Source: Chiloscyllium plagiosum
Lineage: Eukaryota
Assembly (NCBI RefSeq): GCF_004010195.1
Contig: NC_057718.1
Span: 57,241,023 to 57,305,022 of the forward strand
Reading direction: 5' to 3'
DNA length: 64,000 nucleotides
Shown: positions 6,101 through 64,000 of the stretch, piece by piece
Position numbering within the stretch: position 1 is the stretch's first letter
Layout: the number at the start of each line of letters is the position of its first letter
Translations under genes and position numbers: made by a program
The notes under the pieces: generated by a model
Seen by the model: the letters and a program-made list of their open reading frames with translations, nothing else
Told to the model about the DNA's origin: nothing
Database searches by the model: none

Positions 6101-7045
6101 ACTTCTGGAGCAGGTGAGATTTGATCCTCTGTCTCTGTCTCAAAAGGTAGAGACAACAACCCCAGTTCCCCAGAGTATTAACCTCGGCACGACCATCTTC
6201 AGCTGCTTCAATGACCTTCCCTGCTTCAAAGGCCAGAAAGTGGGATAGTTTCTGATGATTACACCATGTTCAGCACTATTTGTGACACCTCAAGATAGTG
6301 AAGTAGCCATTGCCTATATATGGCAAGATCTGGACAAATGCTTGTTATTTATCAACTAAAGAGCAGACAGTGTTCACAGTACATATAGGACAGTGATCAT
6401 CTCCAACAAAGGGGTATCTAACTATTGCTCCATGATATTCAATGATGCCACCATCACTGAATCCCCCATCATCAAAGCCCGGTGTACGAATTAGCCATAA
6501 AACACTGCAGCTACAACAGCAGGTCACTAAGGATTTTGCAGTGAGTAATCTTTTTTCTAACCAATGCCAATCAACAGACGCAAGAGAGGAGTATGATGGA
6601 ATGATCTCCACTTGCCTGGATGGTGCAGCTCCATAACACTCAGGAAACTTGACACTATCCAGGACAAAGCAGCCTGCTTGATTGACATTTCATCCACCAC
6701 CTAAAAAATATTCACCCCTTCCCTGATGGTGCACAAGATGAACTATAGTAACTGACCAACGATTCTTCAAAAGCACCTTCTAAACCTGAAACTTCTGCTC
6801 CCTCCACACAGGCAACAGATACACTGGCACACCAACTTAAAGTTCTCCTCCATAGAACTTCTTTGCTTTCAATGTTACTGGGTCAAAATCCTGGAAGCCT
6901 TTCTAAAAACACTGTGTATGACCATACACCCAAAGGATTCCAGCGATTCAATAATGGCAACCCACTGCGGCCTTCTCTAGAGCAATTAGGAATAAGCAAT
7001 AGTGGCCGAGATAGTGATGCCTATATCCCATGAATGAACAAAAAT
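3140..7045 (+). mobile_element. Old CR1/L2-like LINE split by the Gypsy remnant (pieces about 3140-3690 and 6170-7045)
   Basis: KTLGPDNIPATVLKTCA...MWKIAQ before the Gypsy, RT-core and 3' tail (ATCCCATGAATGAA) remnants after it. Confidence 0.6.
3715..6048. mobile_element. Rearranged Ty3/Gypsy LTR retrotransposon remnant
   Basis: Minus 3715-4640: protease LNGHLAPMEVNTGASISVI and RT start EIKKLESKGII..FAEWAVPVVSIVKSDGS; plus 4640-5500: integrase QILAELH*GHPEVFRMKMLAR..CSECQ and WDWPGKP; purine tract about 5804-5816 then LTR-like sequence with TATATAA-like box and AATAAA. Confidence 0.8.
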
Positions 7046-7736
7046 GCACAAGGACACTCACATCCCACTGTATTGCAACATTCTCTTCCCCATTTCAATA
7101 GCTTTCTTACTCTGCCTGCCCAAACAGAAAGTGTTTTTCCTGAAGTATACTTTGCCAAGTATTTCAAACTAGATCCTTTTATAGACTCCTTTTACCCTAC
7201 CTGCGAATTTGGTTACAGTACAATTCAGTTCTTTCATCCAAATCATTAATGCAGGTTATAAATAGTTGAGATATCAAAGCAATTGCCAATTTGATAATGC
7301 CTCATTTATTCCACTGTTAACTGATAATAAATTTGCCAGTTTTCCTTTCACAAATTGCAATTGGACATGGTCAACATGGTTATGATTTCATATATGTCCT
7401 GCTATTATCTCAATATTATAATATAGCATTTCCCAAAAGCACATCTGGGTAATTCTCGTTTCATGCTTTCTCTTCCTTTCCTGAAACATGGTATGAAATG
7501 TGTTTTCCAATTTGCTGCAACCTTTCCAAACTCAAGGAAATTTTGAAAATTTGCAAACAACGCATTCTCTAATTCTTCAGCTACCTACTTTAAAAAAATA
7601 CTTTTGCATGCTGGCAATTAGAGTCCTGGAGACTTATTCACCCGTAGTGCCAGGTTTTCAGTGTGATTGCTTTAGGTTCCGAATTAGTGGCGCTGGAAGA
7701 GCACAGCAGTTCAGGCAGCTTCCAAGGAGCAGCGAA

Positions 7737-7770
7737 ATCGACGTTTCGGGCAAAAGTCCTTCATCAGGAA
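7737..7770 (-). ncRNA. Minimal hammerhead motif on the opposite arm of the palindrome
   Basis: CTGATGA-A-GGAC-TTTT-GCCC-GAAA-C-GTC; one stem II mismatch. Confidence 0.55.
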
Positions 7771-7782
7771 TAAAGGCCTTTA

Positions 7783-7816
7783 TTCCTGATGAAGGGCTTT
7801 TGCCCGAAACGTCGAT
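7783..7816 (+). ncRNA. Minimal type-I hammerhead ribozyme motif, intact core
   Basis: CTGATGA(7786-7792)-A-GGGC-TTTT-GCCC-GAAA-C-GTC(7811-7813); stem I is short and imperfect. Confidence 0.7.
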
Positions 7817-7934
7817 TTCACTGTTCCTTGGATGCTGCCTGAACTGCTGTGCTCTTCCAGCACCACTAATCCGGAATCTGGTTTCCAGCATCTGCAGTCA
7901 CTGTTTTTACCTGCTTTAGGTTCCTCCCTCTCTT

Positions 7935-8265
7935 GCATAGTGTGGAAACAGGCCATTTAGCCCAACAAGTCCACACCAACCCTCTGAAGAGTAACCCACC
8001 CAGACACATTCTCCTATCCAATTACTCTACATTTTCCCTGACTAATGCACCTAACCTACACATCCCTGAACATTATCGAAAATTTAGCATGGCCAATTCA
8101 CCTAACCTGCACATCTTTGGACTGTAGGAGGAAACCGGAGCACCCAGAGAAAGCCCACATAGACACAGGGACAAATGTACTAACTCCAAACAGACAGTGG
8201 CCTGAGGCTAGAGGTCTCTGGCACTCTGGGGCAGAAATGCTAACCACTCAGCCACCATGCTGCCA
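7935..8265 (-). mobile_element. HE1-type SINE
   Basis: Alignable by eye to 2573-2891. Confidence 0.8.
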
Positions 8266-9440
8266 TAAAATTAATCTTACAGGTTTTCTTTGTTTTTTTT
8301 ATCATGAAAACAAACAAAATATTTGTTCAAAGTCTCTGCCATTTGCTTGGGTCACATTACTTGCCCCCCCTTTAAGGACCAATGCTCATGTTCTATATTT
8401 TCCTTCACACTTTTACTGAATGTGTGAAGTTTTCAAAACAAAAATAAAATTACTAGTTTTCTGTCAAAACAAAGAATACATTGAGTTAAAACATCTGTGA
8501 CCAATTTCACAATCACATGGGCTACCACTAATCTTTGCTGCATTGTACATATGACACCATCATTAGGTTGTGTCACTCCTGATGGAATATCTGAATGCTG
8601 TTTTGATTCAATCACCAAAATGGCCAATCATTTTGTACTACTATTCAGAACAGAAGGGAGACTTGCACCAGTTTTTTGTTGAACTCAAATACATCTTTAT
8701 TTTAAAACAATACTTCTAAAAATAACAAAATAGTTCACAACCAAGTTATAATAGAACTGCATTTCTTTGGAATCCCAAAATACACTTGCAGAGATCAAGT
8801 TTAAAAAAAACAAAAGCCCACTCTTGCATGTAAAAAAAAATTGTTGACTGCAGTTCACGTGGTATCTTGTTGACTAAAATCTGTAGATTTACTGATCAAA
8901 GATCTTCAGTTTAGATTGTCAGCCAACTTGGTTTCAGTCTTTAGAAAGTGACTACAGTTCAGATTCAAGATTTATAAAATTGAAAAACTAATATGTAAAC
9001 ACCTTCAGGTTACCAACGATGCTGAGACATATAGTCTAAATTTCTCCCATACTGACCACTTAGGCTTGTGAAAACAGAAATTACATATCATAAATGATTG
9101 CTAGGTAACCATCAGCACAGGCCTCTTGTATAGTCCTCTTTTTTTCCCAAAAGCCAAGTTTCCCAGCATTTAAGGATGATAAGTTAAATCTCTCTAATAG
9201 CTTTCCCCATCTCTTCAAAATCAAAAGTAACAGGTAATTTTAACTGTTGACCTCATTTTCTAAACAACCACATGGTCAAGAATCATTTCCAAATTCGAAA
9301 CTATCCATCCAATTTCTTTCACTTTTTCCACAGCTTGTAATATAAATATGTATTCCCAATAGTACCTATTACAATAGCATCCACTATAATCTTCTGCATA
9401 GAATTGTTCCTGAATAAATACAGCTGAAAAACATAGTACA

Positions 9441-9690
9441 GCATGGTCACTCAGTGGTTAGCACTGTTACCTTACAGCACCAGGGACAGTCTCTGTGGCG
9501 TTTACACATTATCCCAAACGTCTTTGTGGGCTTCCTCCCATGGTTCACAGATGTAGTTAGGTAGATTAGCCATGGGAAATGTAGGGTTACAAGGACAGGG
9601 TTGAAGTTAGGTCTGGATGGGATGCCCTTTGGTTGGTTGGTGTGGACATGATGAGCTGAATGGACTGTTTCCACACTCTAAGGATTCTAC
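9441..9690 (+). mobile_element. HE1-type SINE, degenerate
   Basis: CAGTGGTTAGCACTG head and CTGTTTCCACACT tail region. Confidence 0.7.
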
Positions 9691-12849: not shown

Positions 12850-13033
12850 GTCGGACCACTGCAGCGGACAGCTGGAACTGACAACCGGAAGCGGCAGATT
12901 CAAACCACTACAAATGCCGGAGGAAAGATCACAGAAGCGCTTCACAGGAGGCTCCCAAGCACTGAGGATGTCACCTTGACAGGGGACGAAACGTCTGCAA
13001 AACAAATTCCCAGCTCGGTGAACAGAACCACAA
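12850..13033 (+). mobile_element. Penelope-like element 3' end fragment nested in CR1
   Basis: Near-identical to the reverse complement of 42920-43100; replaces about 16 bp of CR1 sequence. Confidence 0.85.
12959..12998 (+). ncRNA. Minimal type-I hammerhead ribozyme motif, intact
   Basis: GCA-CTGAGGA-T-GTCACCT-TGAC-AGGGGAC-GAAA-C-GTC^TGC; stem I GCA/TGC, stem II 6 of 7 paired. Confidence 0.75.
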
Positions 13034-14590: not shown

Positions 14591-15208
14591 CAGTGACACC
14601 AGCAGGAAAAACAACAAAATCAAGCAGCTTAGGTAGAGGAATTTCTAACATCAGGCTTATAATTCAACTGAATAGTTACTACTTAACTGCTGTTCACAGC
14701 AGCGTCCGCAACAACTGGTGTGCAGAATCTCTCAATGCAACAGGTGCTTGAGAATCATTCTACTTTGGAAATGATAAAGTGCATTACCTAAATGATAACT
14801 ATTTTTTGTACGTCTGAAAACTATGATGTTACTGACCACTTGACAAATTCAACTGATGCCAAGAAACTCAAATTATTCAAGGTTAAATCACTTGAAAGAC
14901 GTTAGCAAGTGAAGTAGTGTGACACTAGTCAAAAGGACCAAAAGGTCAACACAAAGAGAAGCAACTGAGGTAGGCAGGGCACATTTTTTCATCTGGAAAC
15001 ACCCTTCCAGAGTGGCACTGAATGGACAGCACCAGATGCAACATGGTATGGCAGAAAAGACTGACCTGGGGAACTAAATTTAACGAGAATTTTCAAGCGT
15101 GGGATACCACCTGGGCTCAGTGAAAGAGATTGTGATGGACCAGGGCCAGTGCACATAGGTCCTCCAGTCACGTATAGCAGGAAGATAGGAAAGAGAGACA
15201 TGTTAAAA

Positions 15209-15377
15209 GTTTGAGAAGATTTGTAGCTTGGGTGCTCGTTGTTGTGGTTCTGTTCGCTGAGCTGGGAATTTGTGTTGTAGACGTGAGAAGATTTGTAGCT
15301 CGGGTGCTCGTTGTTGTGGAGGTGCTCGGGTGCTCGTTTGCAACACAAATTCCCAGCTTGGCGAACAGAACCACAAC
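15209..15377. mobile_element. Miniature rearranged PLE terminus with 15-bp target-site duplication
   Basis: AGAGACATGTTAAAA at 15194-15208 and 15378-15392; interior is tandem plus inverted copies of the PLE end seen at 42880-42955. Confidence 0.85.
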
Positions 15378-15904
15378 AGAGACATGTTAAAAATGCCATG
15401 TTCACCCAAACTAATTGAAAATCTTGGATTATCAAATTATTGCTTGAAAAAAAAGTTAAAATTATCAAACAGATAAATGCTGAATAGGTAGAGATTAAAA
15501 ATTTCTACCTTGTATTTAAATCACAAGCAGCAACAGTTGATCACAAAAATCACTCATTTCAAAACTAACATAGTTACATAGTTACCTGTATGGTAGGATG
15601 CAGGTGATATGTAGGTTCTAGCTTTTGTTACACTGAATGTTTGGTACAGCACATGTAAATCTGTTTGAGGGAGGAAAGTTGATGTAGTTCTGCATAGTTT
15701 AAAAGTTTAATGCTCATTTGTGGAAGGGTTCATGGTTGCAGGTATATCTTCTAAAGCGAAATGCAATGAATGTCAACATGTCAATGAGAGAAAAAGACCA
15801 AAATACATGTTAATTACACACTTCTATACAAAGTAACTCCATATTAAGACAGTAATTTAATTAACCCAAATGACAACTGAAAATCAACTCTGATTAGCAC
15901 GACA

Positions 15905-17560
15905 CATTTAGTTGCTGCTTTGGTTTATTTTTAAAACATTGTGCGTAATCCTATAAATAAAACTAAGCCCTAAAACAAACAATTCAATTGATCAATTGGT
16001 TGATTCTCAGTTTACAATTCAGCACCTTTAAAATTAAAGTTCTGACCTTTACCAGAAAATAGACACAACAGCATTCTGTTTATGGAATTACAGGGTCACA
16101 TTTTAATTCCTGAATCTTACATTGCTTCATTAATATCAACACGTATACAAACAGTGTAAAATAACAGTTACAGTGGTGGTTATTCATCCATACAAAATAA
16201 ACTTCTGTTTTATGGAAAAACTATACTTCATATCTACATGACAGACGGCCCATTTTTTCCAAAGAATATTTAAGTTGAGCTACAAAACCTCCAAAATACC
16301 AAGGGATGCAGATGACTTCAAAAAAAAAGCTTTAAAAAGTTTTGATTTCATTTTGTAACACACAGATTGCCAGTTGGCTATTTGGCTACAGCTGGTTTAA
16401 CAACCTGCGTTAACCACTGTATTAAAAATGAACCAGAACACCACACTGTGCAATAAAAGCATCTGGAACCTAACTTGAGCCTTCTACTGTGCTTAGATCT
16501 TAACTACTGCACAGAGATGACTGACTGACTGTCTGAGCAAAGGCAGACTAGTTAAGACTCATTTGTTGCAGCTGGTACAACTCCCCAGTGTTACTATCAG
16601 TCAGTTGTTAAAATTAGTGTTCCCTAAAAGAAACTTGCCTAACAGTTATAATGATATATTAACCTGCAACAAAATACCCCAAAAAAATATATAAATCAGA
16701 TTGGGATGATGTTGTTTTTGTTAAGTGGTACTTTTGGCCTGGGGAACTGCCACAACATATAACAGTAGATGAGATAAAAGCAACAGTCTTGCTCATAAAC
16801 CACTCTTGCTGCAGTCACCAGCATCAGCTTTTACACATAGACTATTTCACAAGCCTATCTGTAGTACAGCACATGACTGAGGTGCATATACTTCTGTGCT
16901 TTTCCAACCATTCACCATTTTGATTAGAAAATGCTTAACAGGCCCATTGGATGCTCAAAGATCCAGTGAACATGGTGGCAGTCTCATCATTATGGTCCCA
17001 GTAGTAGGTTGAATTCCTCTGCTTAGATTTTGACAGGTTTCCTTCTCTCCAATTTAAAACTTGGAATTGGAGGCAAACTAAACAAAAATGAGGATTAACA
17101 CATGGGACAGCACCTAATTCATTTCAGACTGAAAGGATTTTCAACTGATACTTCGCACGCCTATTCCAGTTTTTGTTTCCTGGCAAAGAATTCCCAAACA
17201 TCATTTTTGTGCAGTTCCTGCTCCCTTGCTCAAGCTTTCCCTAGCCCGCCCCAAATCTGAATCTCTTCCCCATTTGGGAAACTGTCAATCAGGTTCCCAT
17301 TCACTAACTGCTAGCCCTGCCAGCCTGATTGGCTGGTTTTCCTTTCCAAGTTTGTTCCAGAGAGGTCCAGTTCCCCAGTGGCATAGTGCTGCCACACAGA
17401 ACTCAAGCCCTCTAGTTGAAACATTGGCACACTGTTTGCTACTCCTTGCATTGCATCTTCTGTAATCACAGTGAAGCAGCCATTCCTGATTAAGACCCCA
17501 AGCTTAAGGAACAGATGCACCATTGTATCAGACCCCGAAGTCATCCATCACATGCGTCAA
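15905..17560 (-). other. PPP4R3B: Predicted PPP4R3B 3' UTR (about 1.65 kb)
   Basis: Follows the stop codon, no recognisable TE, ends at an AATAAA signal; end point is inferred. Confidence 0.6.
15924..15929 (-). terminator. Polyadenylation signal AATAAA
   Basis: Minus strand AATAAAccaaagcagcaactaaa followed by a GT/T-rich downstream element (tgtgtcgtg...gttgattttcagttgtc). Confidence 0.6.
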
Positions 17561-17656
17561 TTATGAGCCTAGACGAGGTCGTTTTCTTGGTGATGCTTCT
17601 TCTTCCTCCTCCTCTTCCTCATCATCAGGATAATCTACAAGTCCCACTAGACCTCC
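17561..17656 (-). CDS. PPP4R3B: PPP4R3B terminal coding exon, 96 bp to TAA
   Basis: GGLVGLVDYPDDEEEEEEEEASPRKRPRLGS*, the characteristic PP4R3B C-terminus; tttag acceptor. Confidence 0.96.
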   Translation of the reverse strand, partial: GGLVGLVDYPDDEEEEEEEEASPRKRPRLGS

Positions 17657-18298: not shown

Positions 18299-18651
18299 CT
18301 AAAAAGAAAACATTTAAGGGCTCAGATTACACCGAATTAAAGTGTTTATCTCAATTAAACAGTAATCTTAAGTTTTATACGTCAGCATCTATATAGATTG
18401 GCACTCCTCGGCTTTCTAGGTAAAATTTACATGGGTACATGCATAACATGCAGGCTGCATTCAGTGGCAGACTTTCCCAAAGAGAGTTTGGAATTAGATC
18501 TTTCAATAAGAACACAAACATAGGGCGTTTTAAAAAAAAATTAATACTCTGCACCAACTTTGTAATGTAGCTGGTACGATGTTCAAGTAGTGTGTTTGCA
18601 AAATCATAGCCCATGGAGTTCAATAGATTGTAGAAGGATACAAAATGAGAT

Positions 18652-18820
18652 ACAGAAATTGCTGGAAAGGCTTAACAGGTTTGGCAACTTCAGTGGAGAG
18701 AAATCAGAGTTAACATTTCAGGTCAAGTAACCCTTCCTCAGAACTCAACCTGAAATGTTAACTCTTGATTTCTCTCCCAAGATGCTGCCAAACCTGTTGA
18801 GCTTTTCCAGCAATTTCTGT
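18652..18820. mobile_element. Palindromic PLE-derived element (another family) with hammerhead motif at 18709-18744 minus
   Basis: Arms ACAGAAATTGCTGGAAAGGCT.../...AGCTTTTCCAGCAATTTCTGT; minus GTT-CTGAGGA-A-GGGT-TACTTG-ACCT-GAAA-T-GTT^AAC. Confidence 0.7.
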
Positions 18821-21381
18821 TTTTGCTTCTGCAAACCCAGCTTCTTCGGTTTTTACTTAAGATACAAAGTATATTGGATGTACGGTTTGTTTCTCAGACT
18901 CAGGTTAAGTGGACAGTGGTTTCCCCTAAAGATCAGTGTTATGATTACCACACTTTTTGACGTATTAATGATTTGCGCTTCAGTATACAAAATATAAAAT
19001 TTGATTATAACACTTGGAAATGTAATATATTTTTGAAAATAAAACTAAGAGGAGGTGGTCATTATACCCAGAGTCTTTTCCATCGTTTAATGTGATAATG
19101 GCTGATTGGACTGTGACCTCAACTTCCTTGTTAATCAAAAATCTAACTCCACTTTACAGCTCTGTGGGGAGAAGAATTTCCTCTTTGCCCTGGTCTTAAA
19201 CATCTGTCCAGCATCTACCCTATCAAGGTCCATCAGAATCTTGTGTTTTAATAATCTCATCTTTCAAGAACATGAACACCCAGATTCTTCTGCACAGGGA
19301 CATTTGGAAGTTTCTCTCCCATTTCAATAACATTCTGCTTTTCTGATGGTGAAACCCATCTTCCCACATTTGTAAATTTATGTGCCAACTCACTGAACTA
19401 TCTATTGCCCTGAAGACTGCCCTCCCACCTCTCTTTATATCAGCAGCAAATTTGGTTACAATATAGGCAAATCCCTTCACCCAAGACTGATAGTAAATAA
19501 TTGAGGACCCAATACAGATTCCTGCAGCAATCTGCTTGAGAGTTTGCTGACCTGAAATGACCCATTATAATGCAGTATCTGTAATTCAGATCCTGTCTCT
19601 GGGCCAGAAAGTCTGAGTTAAGTCCGGTTTACCCCAGAGGAGTGCCATTCCCTGTCTGAACAAGCTGATTAAAAATTATTCTAACTTTTCAGTTGGTTAA
19701 CCAACTCTTTTTCCATACTAATCTGTTATCATAACCACTGAGCACTTATCTTGTGCAAAGAGCTTTTATGAAACTGTATCGAATGACTTTGGTCAATCCA
19801 AATTCAAAACTACTACTTGGTTTCCCTTTATCAAATCTTATTTCTTCAAAGTCACCTAATAAACATAATGATATGATTTTCTAAATGTCCTGATACTCTC
19901 TCCTTCAATAATGGATTCTAGCATTTTCCCCAATGTCAGATGTTAGATTAATTGTCCTATGTCAATTACTGCAGTGCATCTCCCTCTCTTCTTGAATTCT
20001 GCTGTTTTTTTTAAGTTTCCAATCCAGAGAAGTCTTTACAGAATTTAAAGGCCTCCACCCAAAACAACTCCACATTTTTATCCTCTGAACTATCAATTCT
20101 CACTAAATTGATTTGGCTTTTACTAAAGGAGCCACCTCACCACTTCGATTTCCACCACTTTTATGATCTAAAATTTCAAATACCTTTGAATAGTCATGTG
20201 GGCAATAGTTGCTTTGTAACTTGTCTCTGTAATGCCTAATATATCATGCTCATTTACTTATGTGTTATTAATTCACCCATCTTGTTATACATGCCGTATG
20301 CATTCAAAATAACTTGCACTTTTTTTACAATTTTTCTCTAGATCACTATGTGGCCTTGTTTGCTGCTGCATGCTGTGTTTATGGTACATCATTCTCTGAT
20401 TATCTATTTTGGAATACTTCGCAAAATCTCCCTTGCTAACCCATTAGCAAGGGCACAAACTGAAGAATTCAGCAAATATTGACAATAAAATTTAATTGTA
20501 GATAAATTCTGTCAGTTACAAAAACAGCAGTAATCTAATGATTCACACAATCAATAATGCAAGAAATTCCATTTTTAATCTGCTTGCACAATTAAGTACC
20601 ATAGATTTTTGACATTTAAACAGTCGGGAGGCAATATTTCAATAACTTCAACTTATTCAAAATAATGCATTAATACTTACTCAGATTAAAGATTTTAAGG
20701 CAAGAAATACCAAAGACATGCTGTAACACCTTGTAAACAAAAAATATGATAGGAATGCATTTCTATCAAAAGGTTAGAATGACAGATTTTTACTTCAAAA
20801 TTTAAAATATATGATTTTGATTTTATTTTAAAACATGTTTTTTTAAAATTGCCACCAATGACTGAGCTTTCCCAATTATTTAACATTGCCAAAGGTTTGG
20901 GAGGGATATGGTTCAGGACCAGGCAGGTTGGACTGGTTTAGTTTGGAACTATGTTCGGCATGGACTGAAGGATCTGTTTCCGTGATGTATGACTCTATGA
21001 TTCTGTAAATTTGCAGAAAGTTATATGATAGAAGATTCAGTTTGGAAGCCAAGGACACTTCAACTATTTAATATCTAAAATTTCATGGACAATAATTCTC
21101 CATGTTGCTTTCTTGGTTTTATATTTCTAAGCATTTATGGACAGTGACAGGCTGACAGATATTCACAACCAAATGGAAATGTTCAAACACTAGCACATTA
21201 ACTGTATACTGCTAACAATGTGGAGGGTCCAAGACCAACGATTTGGAAACGGCAAGACAATCAAATGCACACAGAAGCAGCATGTGCAACAACCTTTTCT
21301 ATTGGTATTTAGCATTCAGATTTTAAAACTCAAGTACGGTATAACAAAAATGTATTGCTAAATTGCTGAAAATTACAGTAC

Positions 21382-38009: not shown

Positions 38010-38095
38010 CTAACCTGATGAAGGAGCAGCGCTTCAAAAGCTTGTGCTTTCGATTAAACCTGTTGGACTATCCTGGTGTTTTGTAATTTTTAAAT
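38010..38095 (+). mobile_element. PLE terminal fragment (further family) with degenerate hammerhead
   Basis: CTGATGA(38015-38021)-A-GGAGC-AGC-GCTTC-AAAA-GCTT-GTG; GAAA changed to AAAA. Confidence 0.55.
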
Positions 38096-42808: not shown

Positions 42809-42879
42809 GCTTGCACCTGACAATATAATTTAAGAGTAGATATTTTTCACAATGCCAATGAATCATGTACAAGTATTCA

Positions 42880-44310
42880 AAGTTTGTGAGAAGATTTGTA
42901 GCTCGGATGCTCGTTGTTGTAGTTCTGTTCACCGAGCTGGGAATTTGTGTTGCTGACGTTTTGTCCCCTGTCTAGATGACATCCTCAGTGCTTGGGAGCC
43001 TCCTATGAAGCGCTTCTGTGATGTTTCCTCCGGCATTTATAGTGTTTTGTCTCTGCCGCTTCCAGATGTCAGTTCCAGCTGTCCGCTGCAGTGGCCGGTA
43101 TACTGGGTCTAGGTCGATGTGTTTGTTGATAGAATCTGTGGATGAGTGCCATGCCTCTAGGAATTCCCTGGCTGTTCTCTGTTTGGCTTGTCCTATAATA
43201 GTAGTGTTGTCCCAGTTGAACTCATGTTGCTTGTCATCTACGTGTGTGGCTACTAAGGATAGCTGGTCGTGTCGTTTCGTGGCTAGTTGGTGTTCCTGGA
43301 TACGGATCATTAGCTGTCTTCCTGTTTGTCCTATGTAGTGTTTTGTGCAGTCCTTGTATGGGATTTTGTACACTATGTTGGTTTTGCTCATGCTGGGTAT
43401 CGGGTCCTTTGTCCTGGTGAGATGTTGTCTGAGAGTGGCTGTTGGTTTGTGTGCTGTTATGAGTCCTAGTGGTTGTAGTAGTCTGGCTGTCAGTTTAGAA
43501 ATGTTCTTGATGTATGGTAACGTGGCTAGTCCTTTGGGTTGTGGCATGTCCTCATTCCGTGGTCTTTCCCTCAGGCATCTGTTGATGAAATTGCAGGGGC
43601 ATCTGTTTTTGGCAAATACATTGTAGAGGTGTTCTTCTTCCTCTTTTTGCAGTTCTGGTGTGCTGCAGTGTGTTGTGGCCCTTTTGAACAGTGTCTTGAT
43701 GCAACTTCTTATGTGTGTGTTGGAGTGGTTGCTTTCGTAGTTCAGGACTTGGTCTGTGTGTGTGGCTTTCCTGTATACATTTGTGGCGAATTATCCGTTC
43801 GGTGTTCTCTGTACCATCACGTCCAGGAATGGGAGTTGGTTGTCCTTTTCTTCCTCTCTAGTGAATCTGATTCTTGTGAGTGTGACGTTGATGATCAGGT
43901 GTGTTTTCTATTTCTGTGTTTTTAATTATTACAAAGTGTCATCTACATAACTGACCCAGAGTTTGGGTTGAATTTGCAGTAAGACTGTTTGTATCTTTGC
44001 ATTACAGCTTCTGCTATGAGTCCAGAGATGGGTGAGCCGATGGGTGTGCCGTTGATTTGTTCATATATTTGGTTGTTGAATGTGAAGTGTGTTGTGAGGC
44101 ACAGGTCCAGTAGTTTGAGTATGCAGTCTTTGTTGATAGGTTCCCCGTCTTGTTGTCTGTTCTGTACGTCCAGTAGGTTGGCTATTGTTTCTCTGGCTAG
44201 GGTTTTGTCGATAGAAGTGAACCGTGCCGTTACATCGAATGAGACCAACGTAGTGTACAAAATCCCATGCAAGGACTGCACAAAACACTACATAGGACAA
44301 CAGGAAGACA
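42880..44310 (-). mobile_element. Penelope-like retroelement: RT C-terminal half, GIY-YIG endonuclease and terminal repeat
   Basis: LVSFDVTARFTSI, YEQINGTPIGSPISGLIAEAVMQ (PLE RT); NIVYKIPYKDCTKHYIGQTGRQLMIRIQEH (GIY-YIG); degenerate hammerhead at 42952-42991. Confidence 0.92.
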
Positions 44311-50450: not shown

Positions 50451-50832
50451 ATCTGAAAAGAACCATGTGAAGTTGTATGAACACAAATTGCCTTTTCCAC
50501 ATTCAAATCAAGGACCACAATTACGTTTTGTGATAGTCAAGGATCAGATAGCAAGATATTCAATCCTAATTTCTAAGAAGAAAGAGGCAAGCATCTTCGC
50601 CTCTTTCTTCTTAGGGAACACCAATGTTCTTATCAATATGGGCACCACCAAAAGTCACATATTGAGGGGAATCAAGGCTTATATACTGCTGAGCAGTCAA
50701 AATTGCCCAGTGATTTTTTTTTGATAAAATAACACCTGAACAATGAGGGGAGTAGAGGTTCAATTCTGAGAAAGACAACAAATAACTGCATGGATACTTC
50801 CTTTTCTCCATGTTTTAATGAAGTGATCACTA

Positions 50833-54593: not shown

Positions 54594-54791
54594 ACTGCAG
54601 AAGCTGGAGATTAGAGTCGTGCTGGAAAAGCACAGCAGGTCAGGTAGCATCTGAGGAGCAGGAAAATTGATGCTTTGGGCAAAAGACCTTTACCAGGAAT
54701 CCCCGATGAAGGGCTTTTGCCTGAAATGTCGATTTTCCTGCTCCTTGGATACTGCCTGACCTGCTGTGCTTTTCCAGCACTACTCTAATCT
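54594..54791. mobile_element. Palindromic PLE-derived element with two decayed hammerheads
   Basis: Arms AGATTAGAGT...CAGGAAT / CCCCGATGAAGGGC...ACTCTAATCT; same family as 7681-7911. Confidence 0.8.
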
Positions 54792-59540: not shown

Positions 59541-60212
59541 GTGGTGAAGTTGCGCACTAAAAAGTAAATTTGTTCCTGGAAAGGAAATTCAAGTTTCAGC
59601 CAGGTAATGTTAGAAAGGAAAAACAAAAATGGACAAAAAAACCCAACAAATTCTGGAAACCTAAAATAAAAAAAAACTACCCAGATAATTCAGGATCTGT
59701 TAAAAAAAAAGTTTTAAATGTTTCAGCTATCTACTTTTCATTCATATATAAAGCCTGCTTGTAACCTACACTAGTTTCTGGTCTCACCCAAATAAGGTAC
59801 AATTCAAGACAGGCTGCTGGAACTGCATTTTCCATTGTAAAACCTTTTAATGTCAAATACATTTGGATTGAATCAATTTTTGATACACATCCATAGCTCA
59901 AAATTTCCCAAATCTAACTTGACTAGCAACCAGGAAACATTGCTCTGAAACACTCCAACTATGTTAGTAGAGGAAAGTTAATGTAAACAAATCTCAACAG
60001 GAGGTAAGGCATAAATCACTCAGAGCATAAAGGTAGCAAAAATAAAGTTCCGTTTTTATTGCACGATCATCTTTCATTTCCAAAGCGTACTTTATTCCTT
60101 TACATAAGGGGGAACATGCTGGCTTCTCTGTCTGAATCCAGAGCAAGGTCCAATCTTGCTATAGATGAGACATTAAATCTGCAAATCAAATTGTTAATAT
60201 CGCTGAAAATTA

Positions 60213-60863
<651 letters not shown>

Positions 60864-62345: not shown

Positions 62346-62870
62346 ACTGGAGATCAGAGTCAAGAGTGTGGTTATTTATCTGTCAGTCCACAAGCCTCAT
62401 TCCTGATGAAGGGCTTATGTCCGAAATGTTGATTCTCCTGCTCCTTGGATGTTGTCTGATCTGTTGTGCTTTTCCAGCACCACACTCTCGATTCTGATCT
62501 ACAGCATCTGCAGTCCTCACCTTCTCCTAGTTGATTTCAACCTGGCTGCGAAGTCTCTTCCAAGGATGCCTATCTTGAAGAAGTTCTCCTACTCTCTCTC
62601 TACAAGGATGCGAGTGAGTCTCTCTGTCACTGCACCTCCCTCACCTCCTTCCCCCCAAACCCTCGGTCATCTCCTCTGCCCTGAACCTCTTCAGCCACGT
62701 CCTAAATCAGACTCACTATCATAACCACACCTCCTTCCTCAATGCCTGCCTACGGAACCGACTGATCCCATATGGACTCCATTCCTGATGAAGGGCTTAT
62801 ACCCAAAAAGTTGATTCTCCTGCTCCTTGGATGCTGCCTGATGTACTGTGCTTTTCCAGCACCTCACACA
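62346..62870 (+). mobile_element. PLE 5' region: terminal repeat, ORF N-terminal remnant, second terminal repeat
   Basis: CTGATGA cores at 62403 and 62785; HTSFLNACLRNRLIPYGL at 62726-62779 resembles the PLE N-terminal motif. Confidence 0.7.
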
Positions 62871-63467
62871 ACAAAAATTTAATAGTGCACGCATTCCATA
62901 AAAACAAGAGCAAACACTAATTCAAATCCCAAAAATGAAAATTTCAAAATTGTAGGTGCCAAAATTGCAACATACTACATACTTTTCTAGGAATTTTGAA
63001 GCTTTGAGCCTCAGATTTTCATTCTATATATACCATTAATAACTGGCAGTGTACACAAAGTTTGCCAGCTATAATAACTTGAGTTTCCCTTGAGTAAGTG
63101 ACAGTATTTTGAAAATTAGGATTGGGGCAAGAGGAAGATGACAGGCAAAAGTGCTAGTATTAGCAAGGGATTTCACACTGGTGAGTTAGATAATCACAGC
63201 TTTGAAGCATGCAAAATGATGCATGTCTGGATCAAATTTTAAGATACTCGGAGGAGCCGTCATTTGTGTCACTAATAACTGTCGTCAAACAGCAAGGTCT
63301 TTTAAAATTAAAAGAACGTTTAATGGGGATAATATTGATAAGTTAATGAGGCCCTTAGTCTTTTGAGTGGCATTAGGTTAAATTTAATGTTGTTTTCTAT
63401 AAGATTTGATTGCTGCATTTTTGTAGTGGCCTCTCCCCATGCCTCTCATTCCCTGTCTCACCACTTG

Positions 63468-63690
63468 GGAGAAAGCGAGGACTGCAGATGCTGGAGATCA
63501 TAATTGAAAAGTGTGGCGCTAGAAAAGCACATCAGGTCAGACAGCATCCAAGGAGCAGGTGAGTTGATGCTTTGGGCATAAGCTCTTCAGCAGGGATGTG
63601 ACAAGCGCTAATGCCCAAAACATCGACTCTCCTGCTCCTTGGATGCTGCCTGACCTGCCATGCGTTTCCAGTGCCACACTTTTCGATCCT
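63468..63690. mobile_element. Palindromic PLE-derived element with 12-bp target-site duplication
   Basis: TCTCACCACTTG 63456-63467 and TCTCACTACTTG 63691-63702; inverted arms GAAAAGTGTGGCGCT / AGTGCCACACTTTTC. Confidence 0.8.
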
Positions 63691-64000
63691 TCTCACTACT
63701 TGCCCCTCTTAGATTTGTGCTCCCTTTCAAGATCCAGGTAAGATTCAAAGCTGTAGAATTCCCAGCTGGGCATGTATAGTCCATGTTTTTAAAACAAAAA
63801 ATTCAAAGTTGATCCTGTCTCAATGCTCTTCTTCTGAATCCTTACTAACAGCAAGTAGGAGCATTTGAAAAAAATGGATTGTAAACCCTCCCGCTCAGCA
63901 CTTCTAAAGTTTTAGGATTCAAACCTCCGCAACACTGGAGCTTTGCCTCCAGAACAGATAACCAGGAAGGAATTGGCAAGTGTGAAAACCACCGAGTGGA

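Follow-up and report, generated by a model that had tools for sequence, protein, structure and literature searches.

A palindromic hammerhead-bearing unit in a shark genome, most likely an old insertion by-product of a Penelope-like element

The 64-kb stretch of DNA analysed here (the window) contains an exon of PPP4R3 (SMEK) on the minus strand at 60210-60863 (Pfam PP4R3, E = 4e-75) and a plausible last coding exon of this gene at about 17560-17640 (minus), which ends near 17560, some 10 kb from the palindromic unit considered below. Much of the window is probably intronic to PPP4R3. The repeats of the window have protein relatives in Chiloscyllium, Hemiscyllium, Stegostoma and Rhincodon, which makes a carpet shark the likely host. 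Directly to the right of the unit lies a SINE-like repeat (7940-8265), presumably resembling shark HE1, with an inverted partial copy at 9439-9487.

A first-pass annotation of this DNA had described a 231-bp palindromic unit with a perfect 13-bp target site duplication (TSD), and this description is borne out at the coordinates given in Table 1. The two 13-mers are identical and 231 bp apart, and no further copy of the 13-mer exists in the window on either strand, the chance expectation for a 13-nt match being about 1e-4 over the 61 × 61 position pairs around the unit ends. The inverted repeat (7674-7776 and 7777-7879) is 93% complementary and has zero spacer, so the arms do meet directly as had been claimed; within the unit they differ by six mismatches over 96 bp (7681..7776 compared with the right arm), and the whole-unit RNA folds at -193 kcal/mol (z = -24.8). 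The symmetry that had been described holds for the inverted arms but not for the full unit, because the right arm extends for another 32-39 nt (7873/7880-7911), a tail that the earlier description lacked. Where the left arm ends on its outer side is ambiguous, because the last 7 nt of the left TSD copy (7674-7680) are complementary to template-sense 7873-7879 through six Watson-Crick pairs and one G.U pair. Two open reading frames of 139 and 77 aa over the unit had been set aside as artefacts of its symmetry, and we likewise reject them as genes: both exist and mirror one another, and a Pfam scan of the 140-codon plus frame is blank. An AATAAA hexamer stands just before the centre on each strand (7769-7774, plus; 7779-7784, minus) and could signal polyadenylation of transcripts that read through from one side or the other. 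The arms overlap at the centre by a self-complementary GC. In non-palindromic copies, seen as loose ends in runs X1, X14 and X21, the sequence beyond 7777 is a common upstream parent sequence, and the junction can therefore be described as a 2-nt GC overlap located 10 nt upstream of C3 of the hammerhead. The parent sequence upstream of the arm was not found in the 64-kb window.

Table 1. Features of the palindromic unit and other self-inverted matches in the window
Feature	Position	Strand	Remarks
Left TSD copy, 13 nt	7668..7680	+	exact match to 7912..7924
Short tail-less inverted arm, hammerhead-bearing repeat end	7681..7776	-	read on the minus strand
Minimal type I hammerhead motif; 7757 is mismatched in stem II	7740..7767	-	minority letter at 7757
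Centre	7776..7777	no strand	both arms end at one site of the parent, which lies 10 nt upstream of C3 in the hammerhead
Body of the long arm, the same repeat end in sense orientation	7777..7872	+	
Minimal type I hammerhead motif, intact core	7786..7813	+	predicted cleavage after C7813, given folding and dimerisation
One-sided tail, 32-39 nt by choice of short-arm end	7873..7911 (or 7880-7911)	+	matches tails of related window copies
Right TSD copy, 13 nt	7912..7924	+	exact match to 7668..7680
Head-to-head repeat end (the unit)	7674-7879		self-BLAST; symmetric centre, GC overlap; 13-nt TSD
Head-to-head stub	15240-15378 (unit 15209-15377; wider 15194-15392)		15-nt exact TSD, tail on left, complex centre, no hammerhead core
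Head-to-head stub, related family	18652-18820 (wider 18646-18866)		asymmetric centre
Head-to-head stub, related family	54608-54791 (wider 54594-54791)		centre probably symmetric, putative AT overlap; no convincing TSD
Head-to-head stub, related family	63503-63687 (wider 63456-63702)		asymmetric centre
Unrelated 42-bp imperfect palindrome	50573-50614		sixth self-inverted match; outside the five-unit count

Each strand of the unit carries a hammerhead motif, intact on the plus strand and with one stem mismatch on the minus strand, as had been proposed. The catalytic core (CUGANGA, GAAA and NUH) is present in both arms. The plus motif also has an extra base after position 9 and ahead of 10.1 (A7793), a G10.1-C11.1 pair (G7794-C7805) and a palindromic 15.2-16.2 stretch without a helix III loop, in which ACGT at 7809-7812 stands for stem III, and the mirror arm has the same three properties. 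Stem II forms four of four pairs on the plus motif and three of four on the minus motif; the letter at 7757 that breaks the latter is a minority one, with the pairing base accounting in run X1 for 4.16 million of a summed depth of 4.45 million. Stem I is weak, comprising three standard pairs in its first four positions (C-G, U-A, U.U, A-U), with the U.U interrupting. A strict scan for the hammerhead motif returned three sites in the window and none in any of 100 shuffles. A covariance check with Rfam Hammerhead_1, which the first-pass annotation had suggested, gave no match: no Rfam hammerhead family reaches its gathering score in the 64 kb, and none appears at E values up to 10 in 801 or 140 bases. 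Additional minimal-hammerhead motifs with unrelated stem II sequences are located at 12962 (plus) and 26554 (minus), both of which pass the strict scan, and in decayed form, recognized by eye, at 38015 (plus) and 48077 (plus).

The unit's own architecture is predicted to keep these ribozymes from folding. For the right arm alone, the computed probability of stem II is 0.93-0.96 and imposing the ribozyme fold takes 4.2 kcal/mol. The computed stem II probability drops to 0.00 for the complete plus-strand unit and for each of the six transcription prefixes tried, and in the complete unit the ribozyme fold carries a penalty of 56.7 kcal/mol. Folding was computed on the plus strand, and an equal outcome on the minus strand is expected by symmetry. 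Because of the head-to-head order, the antisense arm is transcribed first on either strand and is predicted to pair with the ribozyme arm. According to these models, no self-cleavage is expected from a whole-unit transcript, in which the ribozymes are predicted to be sequestered in the hairpin. The idea of an ambisense-ribozyme hairpin resembling retrozymes or viroid-like RNAs is not supported, given this predicted sequestration by the antisense arm and the lack of a tandem arrangement. A raw RNA run (X21, a poly(A) single-cell library, of which about 2% was read) showed no pile-up of molecule ends and no unique-flank read and is uninformative on expression or cleavage.

Palindromes of this build are not restricted to one place or one family. 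Self-BLAST of the window returned six self-inverted matches, five of which are head-to-head repeat ends, all with different centres. A TSD candidate lies beside a one-sided 31-39-nt extension in four of these five units (13, 15, 12 and 9 nt, the last two with one mismatch each), 54608-54791 being the one excluded from the count. The four additional palindromes come from at least three repeat families. In the stub at 15194-15392 the centre holds extra pieces of the stub's own tail sequence and the arms stop short of the hammerhead core. Arms and tail of this stub are matched by the terminal part of an RT/GIY-YIG-type ORF (43997-43086) that aligns at 54% identity with P0005, a protein with RVT_1 and a weak GIY-YIG match. 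Several families therefore produce this build, ribozyme-bearing or not. The ORF (wider region 42872-44300, minus) is 5'-truncated and frameshifted and ends in a decayed minimal hammerhead followed by a tail, with a 57-bp inverted piece at 44244-44300.

The parent of the unit's own subfamily is less directly visible. No RT/endonuclease ORF could be tied to the subfamily of 7681-7911, Pfam and atlas comparisons being blank. A related arrangement at 62347-62870 consists of a short inverted arm, a hammerhead arm with a tail, about 250 bp of ORF N-terminus and then a second arm in direct orientation. The frame that follows the tail of this related copy (62666-62785) matches N-terminal fragments from carpet sharks and matches a known PLE-type protein weakly (E = 0.032), and no RT-bearing full-length relative of this N-terminus was found in protein relative searches. 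Membership of the unit's subfamily among Penelope-like elements (PLEs) is nevertheless the most likely assignment, judging from the motif, the architecture and the parallel RT/GIY-YIG family in the window. Long pieces of these retroelement ORFs are also carried by the annotated shark proteins P0004, P0017 and P0029 (a MAP3K7 isoform, an acid phosphatase-like protein), where they may be annotation artefacts or exonised repeats. Exact-pattern scans of the unit gave zero loci in metagenome contigs and zero in prokaryote genomes; a single viral-contig match was rejected as a chance match of 18-22 nt that does not continue into the ribozyme.

Whether the centre recurs among copies was examined with contigs or reads of four sequencing runs (X1, X14, X16 and X21) aligned to 7480-7800, an interval that covers only 24 nt to the right of the centre and in which only junctions ending at 7777-7783 are seen. 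Summed depth, which is not copy number, reaches 5.7 million on the arm versus 8.4 on the flank in run X1, reflecting a huge arm family. The depth at 7782, past the centre, relative to that at 7773 is 1.6% in X1, 1.7% in X14, 0.07% in X16 (a run only guessed to be RNA, in which hairpins may be under-read) and 2 of 105 reads in X21. Of the arms that reach the centre, no more than about 2% cross it (1.6-1.9% in organisms A and B), and this share is an upper bound because 1052 X1 contigs fit two places and may sit to the right of the centre without spanning it. Depth past the centre is about 500-900 times the flank depth in organisms A and B and about 20-fold lower in organism C. Among the 12 joints listed, 10 are other head-to-head junctions represented by one contig each, and nine of these 10 are near flank depth, with shorter sides of only 20-24 letters. 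A second contig in X1 spans 7703-7800 with 11 other letters and three gaps, and a 1-nt deletion at 7782 is present in 7 and 4 contigs.

The starting points of the arms bear on how this recurrence should be read. By eye, seven of 10 arms begin 4-10 nt upstream of the core, one begins inside it and two begin further upstream. Because the 5' ends of arms cluster just upstream of the core, the same junction can reform, and centre sharing among copies, which had been put forward as a sign of a replicating family, does not discriminate such a family. With few junction positions available, one given centre can therefore recur without any master copy, and the recurrence of the same centre, which may amount to some hundreds of cases, is probably due to a hot spot for junctions and not to a family that copies itself. 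It had been expected that a centre unique to each copy would speak against the hairpin proposal; strict uniqueness is not established, as this centre may be crossed by as many as about 2% of arms. The five units of the window have five centres.

At all six arm mismatches one of the two arms carries the commonest letter of the family, with four changes in the left arm, including the stem II break, and two in the right arm; the margin is modest at 7733, a CpG site, where it is at most 47% vs 14%. Compared in this way with the family, all six arm differences look like decay after insertion, and no arm-specific difference inherited from a master copy is apparent in this one copy. An organism B contig covers the flank, the TSD and 27 nt of the arm, with 11 other letters and two gaps in 226. 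Since organism B is filled at the same site, the insertion predates the split of A and B; both species examined are filled and no empty site was seen in them.

Taken together, the unit is very probably the dead-end product of one PLE insertion, composed of two head-to-head copies of one repeat end with a one-sided tail of 32-39 nt and a 13-nt TSD. The link to PLEs with minimal hammerheads drawn by the first-pass annotation is supported by the motif, the head-to-head arms, the one-sided tail and the TSD, and the first of its two alternatives, a recurring PLE insertion product, by the architecture, the other units of the window and the other junctions. Each arm carries a hammerhead because the end of its parent does. 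Counting against the dead-end reading are that the subfamily has no tied RT/endonuclease ORF, that no empty site was seen and that the depth past the centre also fits a multiplied subfamily. Within this reading we commit to two-sided priming, a mechanism that we consider moderately probable. The PLE protein would cut both target strands 13 nt apart, as the length of the TSD suggests, and each cut end would prime reverse transcription on the element RNA, the distal start site giving the long arm with its tail and the proximal one the short arm, where priming may be helped by seven possible base pairs between the target end and the RNA. Both cDNAs would terminate at one shared position, 10 nt upstream of the hammerhead core, and would be joined via the self-complementary GC. 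The unit would have decayed later, in line with its six arm differences and with the filled site in the second species. The proposed pairing at the short arm counts against the mechanism when compared with passages of PMC11167929 in which RT starts at sites without homology to the cut DNA.

The same dead-end product could also have been formed by fold-back, in which the cDNA primed on itself, copied itself into the mirror arm and was captured by the second target end via the match at 7674-7680. We regard this origin as possible and hold it only tentatively. Palindromes at inverted junctions are interpreted as self-priming in passages of PMC3846280, and the 7-nt match at the outer end of the short arm equally fits microhomology capture; however, a centre with zero spacer has no room for a fold-back loop, which applies here and probably also to 54608-54791 with its putative AT overlap, and in different families the short arms fall 31-39 nt short of the tail end, for which a fixed second RT start site is a better fit than random stopping. 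The zero-length loop and the steady 31-39-nt offset therefore lead us to favour two primings somewhat over fold-back.

Multiplication of the palindrome itself, the second alternative of the first-pass annotation, appears improbable. Under that explanation, a self-propagating non-autonomous family of carpet sharks would have spread some hundreds of GC-centred copies in two species from a master hairpin RNA that was bound by PLE protein via its tail and re-inserted whole, its ribozymes silenced by the mirror image. The past-centre depth of up to 1.6-1.7% of the arm, or about 500-900 flank equivalents in A and B (0.07% in C), is compatible with this, as are the second X1 contig and the contigs sharing the deletion at 7782, and pLTRs alone are described as mobilisable in trans in part of PMC3846280. 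The depth is nevertheless an upper bound, given the two-place contigs and the nature of summed depth, and repeated junctions are expected anyway when most arms begin within a few nucleotides of each other and few junctions are available; moreover, this copy has no arm-specific fixed difference and the five units of the window have five different centres. We consider it highly improbable that this copy, whatever its origin, was kept as a functional hairpin RNA (a substrate for small-RNA production or editing) or as a polyadenylation signal working in both directions. Its very stable fold, the AATAAA on each strand and its presence at the same site in two species would be in keeping with retention, whereas the six arm differences are uncompensated, one of them breaking stem II, and the orthologous piece in organism B has itself diverged, as noted above. 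Rfam miRNA matches were rejected, since all of them fall far short of their gathering scores and stem from the hairpin alone.

The unit is thus most likely an old, ordinary PLE insertion by-product, a fresh example of an already known type of insertion. No report of shark palindromic PLE stubs or of a self-propagating palindromic hammerhead element was found in a literature search of titles and abstract openings, with subscription papers and repeat databases outside its range; the supplements of PMC4209133 and of the preprint 10.64898/2026.07.22.740005, in which one cartilaginous fish was sampled, may list this motif. The single locus matters little, being one of very many stubs. As a class, these stubs record how PLEs insert, which is called unresolved in passages of PMC3846280, PMC8557442 and PMC11167929, and the choice between two-sided priming and fold-back could be settled by the exact centres, one-sided tails and target-template matches of thousands of shark copies. 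If the shared centre did mark a multiplied subfamily, it would represent a hairpin-shaped non-autonomous retroelement without precedent in the literature searched.

Several known systems resemble the unit in part. Viroid-like circular RNAs carry ribozymes in both polarities, and a ribozyme motif can likewise be read on each strand of the unit; in contrast to them, the unit is chromosomal DNA with a TSD, found at the same site in two species, and its second motif is an exact mirror of the first rather than an independent one, with neither predicted to fold. A MITE was rejected by reasoning, because no sequence separates the inverted repeats at the centre and an additional tail is present at one end. 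Non-LTR retrozymes are likewise short, non-coding, hammerhead-bearing and PLE-related (Cervera and De la Pena, 2020, PMC7229834; Li et al., 2026, 10.64898/2026.07.22.740005), but in the portions of these sources that describe them they are direct tandems with same-strand ribozymes that release monomers and circles, whereas the unit is inverted and has a single ribozyme per strand, which its complement is predicted to sequester. Within 6500-9000 the arm has no direct repeat.

The likeness to PLEs extends from the ribozyme to the architecture of the insertion. Metazoan PLE minimal hammerheads, as described in parts of PMC4209133, combine the core, an extra nucleotide after position 9, the G10.1-C11.1 pair and a palindromic 15.2-16.2 without helix III, all of which the unit shares, although its stem I is weaker than the 4-5 bp helix I given there. 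Opposite-strand motif pairs 100-700 bp apart are noted in Schistosoma in the same source, where most motifs are truncated solo copies, whereas the two motifs of the unit are only 18 nt apart; sharks are unnamed in these main-text parts. Low self-cleavage rates are published for PLE minimal hammerheads (passages of PMC4209133 and PMC11167929), and the same general picture of PLEs and hammerheads is given in portions of PMC6765202 and PMC8969392. In sections of PMC11167929 (Frangieh et al., 2024), both target strands are cut and extended in vitro by a lizard PLE protein, the tail corresponds to the interval separating two RT start sites, and the hammerhead cleaves only with the protein present, cleavage being dispensable for insertion. 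Compared with full PLE insertions, both copies are here reduced to about 100-135 nt, there is no ORF between them and the junction is exactly symmetric, and compared with the rotifer examples, with their TSDs of 8-10 bp, the TSD is 13 nt long (PMC3846280, in part). What the unit shares with published PLE insertions, as far as the relevant passages describe them, is the head-to-head inverted pLTR, the junction palindrome, the 30-40-nt tail at one end and the short TSD: rotifer insertions have inverted, mostly head-to-head pLTRs, a palindrome at the junction and, on one of the pLTRs, a tail of 31 bp (Arkhipova et al., 2013, PMC3846280), and PLE tails are 30-40 bp long and often present at one end only (Craig et al., 2021, PMC8557442).
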